64,000 bases of DNA from Candidatus Omnitrophota bacterium (GCA_028712255.1 JAQTQJ010000002.1:86846-150845); one strand, 5' to 3'; shown: positions 24,867-60,311, counted from the first letter of the stretch. Numbers and translations are program-made. Notes: generated by a model from the letters alone, not told the origin.

Positions 24867-24953
24867 TGTCATTGCGACCCTGAGCGAAGCGAAGGGGAAG
24901 CAATCTTAAGGCATAGATTGCTTCGTCGGGCTTGGCCCTCCTCGCAATGACAC
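24867..24953. repeat. nested palindromic intergenic element (family A: GTGTCATTGCGA...GAAGCAATC | GATTGCTTC...TCGCAATGACAC)
   Basis: 12-bp outer and 10-bp inner perfectly complementary arms; right half is the exact reverse complement of the left half of the copy at 31415. Confidence 0.7.
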
Positions 24954-24972
24954 ATAGAGAATAAGGAGCTTA

Positions 24973-26100
24973 ATGTTTGAGCGTGCACGCGCGATCCTGA
25001 TAAAAGAGTTTAAACAAATTTTCCGTGATTCGCGGATGAAAACGATAATTTTTATCTCTCCGCTTATACAGATAGTCTTATTTGGTTATTCCGCAAATAA
25101 AGATATTACTTATGTGCCTACCGCAATTTACGATCGAGATAATACTTCAGAGAGTAGGGATCTTTTGCGCAAGTTCACATATTCTAAATATTTTGTCCCG
25201 GAGCATTATATTTTTAGCGATAAAGAGCAGGATCTTATGTTAGATAAGGGTTTAGTTAATACGGTTATCCGTATCGACCGCGGATTCGGCCGCGATCTCA
25301 ATGCCGGTAAAGACGCCAATATTCAATTAGTTTTTGACGGTACGGATTCAAACACAGCCATGGTTGTTATGGGTTATGCTAATACGATTATAAGCGATTA
25401 TCAACAAAACTTACTTAAGAATGAAGCGGAGGCAGCCGGGTTCTTAAACACTGTTCCCAGCGTAAAACTTCAGGACCGCGCCTGGTTCAATGGTAATCTT
25501 ATTTCAAGGAACTATTATTTACCCGGGGTAATCGCTACTATTGTTACGATGATGTCTCTTATGTTGACTGCCATGGCTATCGTTAAAGAAAAGGAAATTG
25601 GTACTATGGAGCAATTGACAGTTAGTCCATTGCGGCCGCTTGAACTTATTATAGGAAAGTTGCTGCCTTTTGGTTTAATTGCGCTTATTCAGGTTCTTCT
25701 AATTACCATATTGGGGGTGTTCTGGTTTAGTATACCTTTAAGGGGGAATGTTTTATTTTTATTATTTTCTACCTGCATATATTTATTTACTACTTTAGGA
25801 ATTGGTTTATTTATTTCGACGATATCCTCCACTCAACAGGAAGCGAATATGGCGGTTTTCCTTTTTTATTTACCTACAGTTTTACTTTCCGGATTTGCCT
25901 ATCCGATTGCCAATATGCCGCAAATTATTCAATGGTTTACGATTTTTAATCCTATGCGTTATTTTATGGTGGTTATCAGAAGTATCTTTTTAAAAGGCGT
26001 AGGTATGGATGTTCTTTGGCCACAATTGTTGCCGTTATTAATTATCGGTTTAACCGTTATTAGCTTGAGCGCTTTGCGGTTCAGGAGAAAACTTACTTGA
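24973..26100 (+). CDS. ABC-2 type permease (paralog)
   Basis: paralogous to 23684-24853. Confidence 0.75.
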   Translation: MFERARAILIKEFKQIFRDSRMKTIIFISPLIQIVLFGYSANKDITYVPTAIYDRDNTSESRDLLRKFTYSKYFVPEHYIFSDKEQDLMLDKGLVNTVIRIDRGFGRDLNAGKDANIQLVFDGTDSNTAMVVMGYANTIISDYQQNLLKNEAEAAGFLNTVPSVKLQDRAWFNGNLISRNYYLPGVIATIVTMMSLMLTAMAIVKEKEIGTMEQLTVSPLRPLELIIGKLLPFGLIALIQVLLITILGVFWFSIPLRGNVLFLLFSTCIYLFTTLGIGLFISTISSTQQEANMAVFLFYLPTVLLSGFAYPIANMPQIIQWFTIFNPMRYFMVVIRSIFLKGVGMDVLWPQLLPLLIIGLTVISLSALRFRRKLT

Positions 26101-26507
26101 TGAAGGGTAAGATTGATTTAATTATCGCCGCTATAATTTCTCTTCTTTTTATCTTTGCGAATATATATGCAGTCAGGAAGATATTTGACTATGGCACACA
26201 AGTTTACCTGTATGATAAACTACTAGTTGCTTATCAGGTAGGAGGCAGGTCGGCTCTTGTTAATGAGTTAGACAGGGTACTTTCAGAAGATAAACTGCAT
26301 CAAGAGCTGGTATCTGCTGAACGTTTCAAAAAAAACCTTATTAATATCAATGATCCTGAGAAATATTTAAAAAATATTTCAGCAAAGAAAAAGTTAAAAA
26401 TTAATCAATTAAGAAATATGCGTAGTGCGGTCTTTATTTTACTTCTACTAATTTTCTTAATAAGGATTATAATAAAAAGAAAAAGCATAAAATTTATATC
26501 TGTATAA
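26097..26507 (+). CDS. hypothetical two-TM protein
   Basis: ATGA overlap with upstream gene; no domain recognised. Confidence 0.4.
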   Translation: MMKGKIDLIIAAIISLLFIFANIYAVRKIFDYGTQVYLYDKLLVAYQVGGRSALVNELDRVLSEDKLHQELVSAERFKKNLININDPEKYLKNISAKKKLKINQLRNMRSAVFILLLLIFLIRIIIKRKSIKFISV

Positions 26508-26523
26508 TTACAAGGGAGGATCA

Positions 26524-27177
26524 GTGAAGAAATTTTTATGGATTTTTATATCTACGCTAATGTTTTTAGTCGCAGCACTTAATTTTTTTATTTATCAGTA
26601 CCGTCTTAACGATACTTTTAACCGAACTCGACAACGGCTAATCTCCATTGCTTCTAATGTCGTCCTTTCCATAGACGCACAGGAGGTTTTAAAAATACCG
26701 CTAGAGCAAAGAAGCGAAGGCACTCCGGAATATCTGGCTATTTATTATAAATTAGAAGAGATTAAAAATAAAAATTTACCCTTTGTAAAATATATTTACA
26801 TTATGACTACAACAGTGAAGCCGGGAATTTTACAATATGTAGTTGATGCTGATCCTGTCCCGCAGATAATAACAGCAAGGTGTCCTACGTCTCTACCTGG
26901 TGATAAATACGATGCCCGCCAGCTCCCTGAGATGCTGGAAGCTTATAATGCTCCTACTGCGGATAGAAAAATTACAACTGATGCGTGGGGTACATTTATT
27001 TCAGGATATGCACCTATTCGCGATACCACTGGAGTGACTATTGCGATACTGGGCGTAGATAGCGATGGTACTTCTATACAGATTATGCAAAAAAGTACCA
27101 AGACGCGCGGAATAATTGTATTATTTACAGGTTTACTATTTATTATTTCGTTTACGACTTTAATAAAATATCATTAA
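26524..27177 (+). CDS. stand-alone TM-Cache-like periplasmic sensor domain-TM protein with no cytoplasmic output domain
   Basis: periplasmic segment ends in DAWGTFISGYAPIRDTTGVTIAILGVDSD, typical of Cache domains, resembling the N-terminus of the histidine kinase at 49321. Confidence 0.45.
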   Translation: MKKFLWIFISTLMFLVAALNFFIYQYRLNDTFNRTRQRLISIASNVVLSIDAQEVLKIPLEQRSEGTPEYLAIYYKLEEIKNKNLPFVKYIYIMTTTVKPGILQYVVDADPVPQIITARCPTSLPGDKYDARQLPEMLEAYNAPTADRKITTDAWGTFISGYAPIRDTTGVTIAILGVDSDGTSIQIMQKSTKTRGIIVLFTGLLFIISFTTLIKYH

Positions 27178-27180
27178 TTT

Positions 27181-59553: not shown

Positions 59554-59759
59554 TAATAATATAGAAAAGATATTTTCTTGCTTGACAAAATATTCCTATC
59601 ATGTTACATTTTATAGTGATACAAAAGGTGCACTTTAGTGTGAGCTTGAAGATTAATATCTTATGAATCTAGTCTTAATTATTGGATACAACGATAAGAA
59701 TTAGTTTTTAAGTTAACGCGAAAAGTCAATTTAACCTTAGGAAGGAGGAGAGCTTTTCA

Positions 59760-60167
59760 ATGAATAGAAAAGGTTTTACACTCGTCGAAATTATGATCGT
59801 AGTTGCGATTATTGCATTATTAGCTGCGATTGCAGTACCTAATTTGCTTACTGCAAGAAGGACAGCTAATGAGGCAGCAGCAAAAGCTACAGTACGTAGT
59901 TTATCTACTGCGGCAGAAACCTTCTCAACCAGTCACAGTGGTGCCTATCCTACAGCTGTAGGTGCAGGTGGTTTGCAAGATTTTATAGCCTCTGCAGGCA
60001 ACTATTGCGCTGACGCAGGTGGTGGAACTACTGCTGTTCAGGGTTATAACTATGCTTGTACTTTAACTGCAGGCGGTTATACCTTTGTAGCTAGTCCTGT
60101 TACTCAAGGAACAACCGGAAGCGTAACTTATACAGCTTCTACAGGTGGAGTGCTTACACCATTATAA
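59760..60167 (+). CDS. type IV pilin (prepilin N-terminal methylation motif), Ser/Thr/Gly-rich C-terminus
   Basis: KGFTLVEIMIVVAIIALLAAIAVPN; AGGAGGAG RBS. Confidence 0.7.
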   Translation: MNRKGFTLVEIMIVVAIIALLAAIAVPNLLTARRTANEAAAKATVRSLSTAAETFSTSHSGAYPTAVGAGGLQDFIASAGNYCADAGGGTTAVQGYNYACTLTAGGYTFVASPVTQGTTGSVTYTASTGGVLTPL

Positions 60168-60183
60168 AAATTGTTTTTTGTGA

Positions 60184-60222
60184 AAAAGGGGTCGGATCTA
60201 TTAGATCTGGCCCCTTTTTATT
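60184..60222 (+). terminator. rho-independent terminator after the pilin gene
   Basis: AAAGGGGTCGGATCTA-TT-AGATCTGGCCCCTTTT (G.U-compensated) + TTATTT. Confidence 0.5.
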
Positions 60223-60236
60223 TATTAGAGCGAAAG

Positions 60237-60311
60237 TCATCCTGAGGGCCGCAGGCCCGAAGGATCTAGATTCTTCGTCCGTCACTGAAGTGATTGCGGA
60301 CTCAGAATGAC
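60237..60311. repeat. nested palindromic element (family B)
   Basis: GTCATCCTGAGGGCCGCAGGCCCGAAGGATCT-AGATTCTTCG...TCAGAATGAC. Confidence 0.65.

Follow-up and report, generated by a model that had tools for sequence, protein, structure and literature searches.

The Ssn nuclease SsnA is a single-domain GIY-YIG protein of 94 amino acids (CDD cd10448) and the partner of the dRS3-containing NTS repeat (PMC11893778). The Ssn enzymes that have been assayed, from Neisseria and Wolbachia, bind their hairpin only in single-stranded DNA and cut just upstream of it, and they are inactive on duplex DNA, on RNA and on the reverse strand (PMC11893778). Three bases upstream of the palindrome are critical for cleavage, a C after the palindrome is critical for binding, and activity survives replacement or extension of the hairpin loop (PMC11893778). 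Ssn homologues flanked by related hairpins, the Ssn-related hairpin motifs (SRMs), are found in many bacteria, and Chenal et al. (Nat Commun 2025), who treat Ssn (cd10448) as a separate family, propose in general that a repeat type is paired with its own nuclease lineage (PMC11893778). Here we relate to these systems a family of palindromic repeats, and a small nuclease gene lying inside one of them, in a 64,000-nucleotide stretch from a Candidatus Omnitrophota bacterium (GCA_028712255.1 JAQTQJ010000002.1:86846-150845; this whole 64-kb stretch is called the window below). [quoted passage not shown]

A second described group, the CGTC-tagged REP superfamily, carries a CGTC or TGTC tag and a stem starting with AT, occurs mostly as inverted dimers and includes the Neisseria dRS3 and the Rickettsia RPE-4 and RPE-6 repeats; Di Nocera et al. 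(2013) reported no dedicated enzyme for it (PMC3733652). A literature search for the arm sequences described below, or for GIY-YIG together with MITE or palindrome, found nothing.

Our analysis indicates that the nested palindromes are very probably inverted pairs of SRMs and that the window encodes the matching enzyme. Judged from their sequence, the elements appear to be a structurally divergent kind of Ssn/SRM system, and of the CGTC-tagged REP superfamily, in Omnitrophota and not a new kind of element.

A GIY-YIG nuclease gene framed by hairpin arms

The copy at 43985-44402 had been reported as split. It is present, but it is not merely split: it holds an intact GIY-YIG gene that had been missed, and it is because of this gene that the element can be placed in a described system. 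The protein has PF01541 (GIY-YIG) as its sole Pfam match (residues 5-78, E=3.5e-17) and matches, with 100% identity, one that is named from a ‘Candidatus Omnitrophica’ metagenome-assembled genome. NCBIfam gave only a sub-threshold match, to a group I intron endonuclease, and a sequence search of solved structures gave a single, weak match, to UPF0213 protein BH0048 (1ZG2, E=1e-4), as would suit two families that are related yet distinct. The same structure is the nearest fold to the AlphaFold (AF2) model of the nuclease (pLDDT 88; Foldseek E=2.5e-4), followed by Slx1 chains and then by the N-terminal domain of UvrC. Residues Y9, Y20, G22, R30, H34, E67 and N86, which include the catalytic tyrosines, the arginine and the metal-binding glutamate, are invariant in 40 homologues. 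The ratio of nonsynonymous to synonymous substitution rates (dN/dS) between copies of the gene in related genomes is 0.06-0.19, and the gene is therefore functional. The family is large, with 11,982 representatives of 50%-identity clusters at E<=1e-3.

A tblastn search with the window protein against an N. gonorrhoeae chromosome record returned a match of 44.2% identity over residues 8-93 (E=1e-17), to a gene that is flanked by nine canonical NTS repeats within 3.2 kb. This E value lies below the limit of E<1e-10 by which Chenal et al. judged homology to Neisseria SsnA in tblastn (PMC11893778). A homologue in Azospirillum lipoferum lies between sufB and sufC and is flanked by canonical SRM pairs. 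These matches mark the window protein as a predicted Ssn-family nuclease.

The gene and its arms recur together in other genomes. A scan with one genome per species returned at least 587 relatives, of which the best 80 loci, with 56-70% amino-acid identity, were analysed. The layout GTCATTGCGAG..GAAGCAATC, gene, GATTGCTTC..CTCGCAATGAC is seen in 57 of these 80: a hairpin head of the A type (the arm types are defined below) stands on both sides of the gene, GTCATTGCGAG upstream and CTCGCAATGAC downstream at no more than one mismatch, whereas this arrangement occurs in none of 245 control windows from the same loci. A further 20 of the 80 have the head on one side only. The many groups represented among the best 80 loci include Omnitrophota, several Patescibacteria groups, Cyanobacteria, Bacteroidota, Chloroflexota, Proteobacteria, Elusimicrobiota, WOR-3, Nitrospirota and Spirochaetes, and the cyanobacterial ones include cultured Nostoc, Calothrix and Anabaena. 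In metagenome contigs with close homologues (L001-L008, L089 and L090) the gene always lies between GTCATTGCGAG and CTCGCAATGAC, about 360-370 bp apart. Pairs without an open reading frame (ORF) are common as well: a head-pairing regular expression found 169 such head-to-head pairs of at most 150 nt in the fetched loci and the window.

In most of the Nostoc, Calothrix and Anabaena loci (L026, L039, L042, L045, L068 and L071) the A-type hairpin is found only downstream of the nuclease gene, and in L068 the gene is followed by tandem arrays of three pairs with long central spacers. The A-type half is also present in at least 120 IMG/VR contigs (L091-L210) that are classed as viral, some of them with four to six copies. 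The hairpin/nuclease system may thus be carried by phages or prophages, or may target them.

The repeat unit, its two arm types and its copies in the window

The real repeat unit is a directional half-hairpin, and each element consists of two such halves. What the preliminary description called the outer and inner stems arises because the two hairpins lie inverted, with their heads outward. We aligned 71 distinct halves from many phyla. Each half begins with a (T/C)GTC head. A basal stem of 5 bp follows, then a conserved internal loop of purines (GA/GAA) and a GC-rich distal mini-hairpin of free sequence, whose stem often closes a GNA triloop, and the half ends with a 3' C. The GTC on the 5' side of the stem (G3, T4 and C5) and the C on its 3' side (C40) are invariant in 71 of 71 halves. 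At -1, 67% of the halves have T and 22% have C, and stem pairs 6:39 and 7:38 are A-T or T-A in 67/71 and 71/71, respectively.

Covariation within this alignment shows what is being conserved. In the basal helix 98.9% of cells are paired, with both-sided changes in 8 of 10 pairs, and the covariation score of 0.346 compares with 0.139 in shuffles (0 of 500 reach the observed score) and with 0.04-0.07 when partners are slid. Where the halves of a pair are unequal, the change is compensated inside the half (eight strict cases in five genomes), as in ATCCT/AGGAT opposite ATTCT/AGAAT or ATCAC/GTGAT opposite ATTGC/GCAAT; the opposite pattern, matching between halves, was limited to one repeated variant in two Anaerolineales assemblies. 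Halves are also found solo or in tandem. From the within-half matching and these solo and tandem halves it follows that the nested palindrome merely reflects two adjoining hairpins. An alternative reading, in which an Slx1-like nuclease cuts a four-way structure resembling a Holliday junction, was considered and dropped, as covariation points to conservation of the half-hairpin and the Ssn literature to recognition of a single-strand hairpin.

The two arm types differ in the core of the basal stem, which is ATTGC/GCAAT in type A and ATCCT/AGGAT or ATTCT/AGAAT in type B. In type B arms (GTCATCCTGAG / GAAGGATC) the core is altered on both sides and the internal loop has one base fewer (GA opposite GA). 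The two arm subfamilies, the mosaic copies with shared half-modules and the REP-like character of this short palindromic family had all been recognised in the preliminary description; the perfect or near-perfect stems that it reported do not extend to the B type, each short copy of which has two to four mismatches across the outer and inner stems together. When metagenomes were scanned for type B arms adjoining the C-terminus of a GIY-YIG protein, there were 126 pattern matches, of which 9 lie beside such a gene, and the others are the chance matches expected from the short protein-derived part of the pattern. Directly after REKxxK, the typed B-arm nucleases have GW[LV], GKK or GYK, and nearly all A-arm nucleases have GGS or AGS. 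In this small sample the difference is no more than suggestive of a separate nuclease lineage for each arm type. N-terminal extensions of database proteins yielded too few cases for typing the arm classes.

A covariance model of the half-element, built from the 71 halves (9 of them from the window) and run over the whole window with filters off, detected exactly 16 hairpins at E<=0.015, eight on each strand, which form eight inverted dimers (Table 1; the dimer that holds the nuclease gene spans 43984-44405). The 17th match, a decayed fragment beside the nuclease gene, has E=0.32, and all remaining matches have E>=2.5. Motif counts agree: at no more than one mismatch GTCATTGCGAG occurs 9 times in the window (0.55 expected) and GTCATCCTGAG 7 times (0.28 expected), neither count being reached by any shuffle, and all of these matches are confined to 24.8-60.3 kb. 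Direct reading of the sequence and the model scan both recover all eight copies that had been listed. The right half of the copy at 24867 is indeed the exact reverse complement of the left half of the copy at 31415, over 38 nt. Rfam gave no match on the elements, either at gathering thresholds or at E<=1.

Folded as single-stranded DNA, the short copies reach -15 to -31 kcal/mol (z = -2.0 to -9.4). Some upstream genes have their final or stop codons within a pair, as is seen for several pairs: the pair at 43179-43263 provides the final codons and the stop codon of gcvPB, and the lplA frame reads through the hairpin that precedes the nuclease gene and stops at a TAA, 4 nt ahead of the nuclease ATG. 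The earlier statement that the elements are always 3' of genes says little, because nearly all window genes are on the + strand and an intergenic site is both 3' of one gene and 5' of another.

Table 1. Hairpin pairs, associated fragments and the nuclease gene in the window (model, covariance model of the half-element; where two E values are given, one for each half).
Feature	Position	Strand or halves	Evidence
A-type short pair, no ORF	24866-24953	+ 24866-24908, - 24913-24953	model E=3e-06, 1.3e-07; DNA fold -28 kcal/mol, z=-6.9
A-type short pair	31415-31498	+ 31415-31455, - 31459-31498	model E=3.9e-07, 9.9e-08
B-type short pair	43179-43263	+ 43179-43222 (ATCCT/AGGAT), - 43225-43263 (ATTCT/AGAAT)	model E=0.015, 0.00028
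A-type hairpin directly upstream of nuclease gene	43984-44032	+	model E=1.5e-06
Predicted ssn-like GIY-YIG gene, 96 amino acids, between the hairpins of one pair	44037-44327	+	Pfam PF01541
Decayed hairpin-head fragment, from nuclease stop codon to downstream hairpin	44328-44356	+	gap in L005 alignment; weak model match 44341-44416, E=0.32
A-type hairpin directly downstream of nuclease gene, inverted relative to upstream hairpin	44357-44405	-	model E=1.6e-06
Extra rearranged head fragment, no proper hairpin	44403-44437	-	GTCATTGCGAG match 44427-44437; no model match; absent in L005
B-type short pair, thyX/cbiQ interval	46131-46212	both	model E=0.00011, 0.00038
A-type short pair, cbiQ/ABC ATPase interval, begins at cbiQ stop codon	46986-47058	both	model E=3e-07, 1.3e-07; DNA fold -30.8 kcal/mol, z=-9.3
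B-type short pair, flipped (ATTCT half left, ATCCT half right)	52389-52481	both	model E=0.00021, 0.0026
B-type short pair	60234-60313	both	model E=0.00013, 0.00053

The A-type half at 43984-44032 and the B-type half at 52389-52436 have nearly the same distal hairpin (CCCGCCATTGATTTGGTGGCGGG vs CCCGCCATCAATTTAGTGGCGGG) on different basal-stem cores, which points to exchange or conversion between the subfamilies.

The window contains several other palindromes and structured elements. A second, unrelated palindromic family with arms GGGACCGTTTCTATTTTTCT is present at 19460-19531 and 41644-41721 (4 arm matches vs 0.01 expected), and its copy at 41.7 kb received a terminator-like call on the - strand. 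At 45303-45350, 14543-14597 and 19545-19610 there are long, nearly perfect palindromes between genes that have no relation to the Ssn hairpins; the first of these, 24+24 nt and 100% complementary, is called terminator-like. A terminator-like hairpin with A- and T-runs is found at 60183-60219, just upstream of the pair at 60234-60313. Finally, the nhaA-I riboswitch family (RF03057) is represented at 5654-5712 and 12282-12333 on the + strand, with 45.7 and 47.3 bits against a gathering score of 37.

Comparison with described systems

The likeness to Ssn/SRM systems concerns both partners. There is a single-domain GIY-YIG protein of about 95 amino acids, with inverted hairpin repeats on both sides of its gene and many intergenic copies, and the hairpin combines a (C/T)GTC head with a stem that has AT at its start and at its end, a C directly behind the stem and a variable loop. 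The bases critical in the Ssn assays are exactly the columns that are invariant here (GTC and the 3' C), and the replacement or extension of the loop that those assays tolerated fits the variable distal hairpin. Unlike the known systems, in which the gene lies among repeat clusters, the gene here is enclosed by just one pair. The host belongs to the uncultured Omnitrophota, in which the system is known from sequence, and the same arms accompany the gene in many phyla.

The CGTC-tagged REPs share with the present elements a terminal CGTC/TGTC tag, the AT at the start of the stem and a short tail after it, and they too are mostly inverted pairs at intergenic positions that sometimes run into gene ends (PMC3733652). 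Theirs is an uninterrupted 8-9 bp stem with a loop of 4-5 nt, in contrast to the 5-bp basal stem, GA/GAA loop and variable second stem seen here, and, going by the text descriptions, the ATTGC/GCAAT or ATCCT/AGGAT core is found in none of the four described CGTC families (PMC3733652).

REPIN-RAYT systems offer a parallel in organisation: inverted hairpin doublets are the non-autonomous repeats, the same hairpins stand on both sides of a gene that is inherited vertically, and recognition is expected at the single-strand level. The enzymes and tags differ, a hydrolytic GIY-YIG nuclease with a GTC tag here and an HUH tyrosine transposase with a GTAG tag there, and a hydrolytic nuclease in place of an HUH enzyme implies that there is no covalent intermediate for strand transfer. 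UPF0213/YhbQ and Slx1 proteins are the nearest solved folds to the window nuclease, but identity to them is only about 20-28% and they have no associated flanking repeats; Slx1 in addition requires Slx4 and cuts branched duplex DNA.

Turnover between relatives, competing explanations and implications

The related contig L005 is syntenic with 38.7-48.2 kb of the window (gcvT, gcvH, gcvPA, gcvPB, lplA, nuclease, lipA, thyX, cbiQ and an ABC gene), the neighbouring proteins being 71-84% identical and the nuclease 82.5%. The nuclease-bearing pair is common to both. The window pairs in the gcvPB/lplA (43179-43263) and thyX/cbiQ intervals are missing in L005, as are the two head fragments near the window nuclease (Table 1), and L005 has pairs of its own at two sites that are empty of pairs in the window, one between gcvT and gcvH and one following the ABC gene. 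This comparison leads to the conclusion that the short pairs turn over while the nuclease gene is stably inherited; copies are gained and lost, as this difference in intergenic occupancy shows. A second conserved nuclease locus, between fmt and galT, is present in three related contigs. We infer that, at its fixed loci, the nuclease gene passes on vertically and is under purifying selection, and that ORF-less pairs are gained and lost at intergenic sites, like REPINs around a RAYT gene.

Some sites show intermediate states. In L005 the cbiQ/ABC interval, which has a complete pair in the window, retains only a head and a decayed partner, GTCATTGCGAGCCACGCAGTGAT (L005 12754-12777), inside the 3' end of cbiQ, which suggests internal deletion or decay of the pair. 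In the gcvT/gcvH interval of the window there is a perfect 46-bp palindrome (39864-39909) with GTCATT...AATGAC at its centre, at the site where L005 has a full hairpin pair (5967-6046); this palindrome may be a footprint or a hairpin with no connection to the pairs. Comparison of the related Omnitrophota contigs L001 and L002 reveals an inserted solo half-element, the boundaries of which stay fuzzy because the two contigs are only about 84% identical. The same contigs carry another palindromic repeat, AACGGGTCCTGTCTTGGGTATTTTCT...CACCCAAGCCACCCGTTA, at intergenic sites (L001 15890-15975 and 17125-17200; L002 17130-17190), and in this repeat region L001 has a 288-nt insertion that L002 lacks.

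Several results weigh against reading the elements as SRM pairs served by an Ssn enzyme. The published SRM motif, HGTCWYN(0-2)YYVSBRHN(0-5)WNVSBRGN(0-2)RNCYNB, has no match in the window and none in 158 half-elements, though it does match the Azospirillum repeats and the NTS consensus of Neisseria. It was derived from 29 genomes as an aid to searching and does not define the family (PMC11893778), and in spite of the missing match the homology and the critical bases together lead us to regard these hairpins as a divergent SRM variant. The architecture differs too, with a 5-bp stem, GA/GAA loop and variable second stem in place of the one 8-9 bp stem and 3-5 nt loop of an SRM. Direct repeats flanking the pairs are no longer than in controls, so no target-site duplication is apparent, and there is no flank preference beyond the T/C at -1, itself part of the tag. 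The window has no B-type nuclease gene, its four B-type pairs being without a visible partner there, and in a quick neighbour-joining tree the B-type nucleases are non-monophyletic, which leaves the local motif to carry the case for arm-protein co-evolution. Single-strand specificity and the position of the cut would be carried over from proteins that are about 44% identical. On each strand, moreover, only one half of a pair is in cleavable orientation, and excision of a pair from a single strand by one enzyme is therefore not obvious.

If it acts as the assayed Ssn enzymes do, the window nuclease would bind the hairpin only while the DNA is single-stranded, as it is in the course of replication, transformation or conjugation, for instance, and would nick it a few nucleotides 5' of the GTC head, sparing double-stranded DNA, RNA and the complementary strand. 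The heads-outward geometry places one cleavable hairpin per strand at each outer boundary of the pair and looks like that of an insertion sequence (IS). Given a hydrolytic nuclease without obvious DNA-rejoining activity and one cleavable boundary per strand, nuclease-driven spread of the repeats is plausible but unproven, and we put it forward tentatively. The fuller proposal, that the ORF-less pairs are REPIN-like mobile elements copied via Ssn nicks on single-stranded DNA, with arm type matched to nuclease lineage and with gene and arms spread horizontally across phyla, we consider conceivable and rather doubtful. An alternative role, by analogy with Neisseria, would be domesticated restriction of incoming single-stranded DNA.

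Other explanations fit the data less well. It is improbable that the palindromes are primarily RNA elements, that is, intrinsic terminators or 3' mRNA stabilisers under RNA-level selection on the + strand. Every pair does lie between co-directional genes and would be transcribed, and stable folding is also in keeping with such a role, as is the part played by REP-type repeats as mRNA stabilisers in other bacteria (PMC3733652). Yet terminator-like calls fall on none of the eight pairs, and no pair has a T-run behind it, although nearby hairpins at 60183-60219, 45303-45350 and 48250-48265 are called. The arm mismatches, taken in the preliminary description as a sign of + strand RNA-level selection, comprise 5 G.T, 5 A.C and 3 transversions and so have no strand bias; their excess of transitions arises because B-type halves carry different, internally Watson-Crick cores (ATCCT/AGGAT and ATTCT/AGAAT). 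Each pair has one hairpin per strand, sequence as well as structure is conserved across many phyla along with the nuclease gene, and the assayed Ssn enzymes do not bind RNA (PMC11893778). We have accordingly given up the terminator role proposed for the elements, and a secondary effect of the pairs on transcripts may exist.

The MITE label does not hold either. Classical MITEs would be deletion derivatives of an IS, moved in trans by a DDE or other transposase that reads terminal inverted repeats, and the short length, inverted ends, many copies and variable presence between relatives would all suit them. Such an origin is nonetheless very improbable, since target-site duplication is not above the control level, the only gene within the full-length copy, both here and at most of the 80 loci from genomes, encodes a GIY-YIG nuclease of 96 amino acids instead of a transposase, and solo and tandem halves are unlike terminal inverted repeats. 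A REPIN/RAYT system, with REP hairpin pairs mobilised by a Y1 (HUH) tyrosine transposase, is hardly credible in view of the head, which is (T/C)GTC and not GTAG, and of the flanked gene, which is GIY-YIG and not Y1_Tnp (no screen for a RAYT gene covered the remainder of the window); PMC3733652 reports no RAYT flanked by CGTC-type repeats, and the resemblance lies in the layout of inverted hairpin pairs and a small, vertically inherited gene flanked by inverted hairpins. A further idea, which we regard as unlikely, is that the nuclease gene is a free-standing homing endonuclease that invaded a pre-existing host palindrome, with the short palindromes as its targets and not its derivatives or partners. 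Some GIY-YIG enzymes are indeed homing endonucleases, the position of the gene is precisely the central loop of a pair, and the copies at lplA/lipA and fmt/galT are as alike as orthologues, the closest pair of copies (90% nucleotide identity) being between the two loci. The arms, however, accompany the gene across many phyla and so are not host-specific, and the occupation of the same two loci in several relatives, with divergence like that of the neighbours and with purifying selection, fits stable inheritance better than recurrent homing. The protein also lacks a DNA-binding extension of the kind used by homing GIY-YIG enzymes, and its assayed relatives do not cut double-stranded DNA (PMC11893778).

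With the elements read as SRM pairs, an abundant repeat of a poorly known, uncultured phylum is now tied to an enzyme family with defined biochemistry. The published SRM motif misses a large and widespread subfamily, one in which the gene and both arms occur together in 57 of the best 80 loci, and motif-based surveys will therefore undercount Ssn-repeat pairs. The A and B arm types, with their distinct nuclease motifs, are ready enzyme/site pairs for learning how a protein of 96 amino acids reads a hairpin, and this specificity bears on the single-stranded-DNA tools proposed for the Ssn family. Gain and loss of pairs between syntenic relatives provides material on whether Ssn enzymes spread their own repeats, a question left open by Chenal et al. 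(PMC11893778). If true, copying via Ssn nicks would be a transposition or copying route built on a hydrolytic GIY-YIG enzyme and not on an HUH or DDE transposase.

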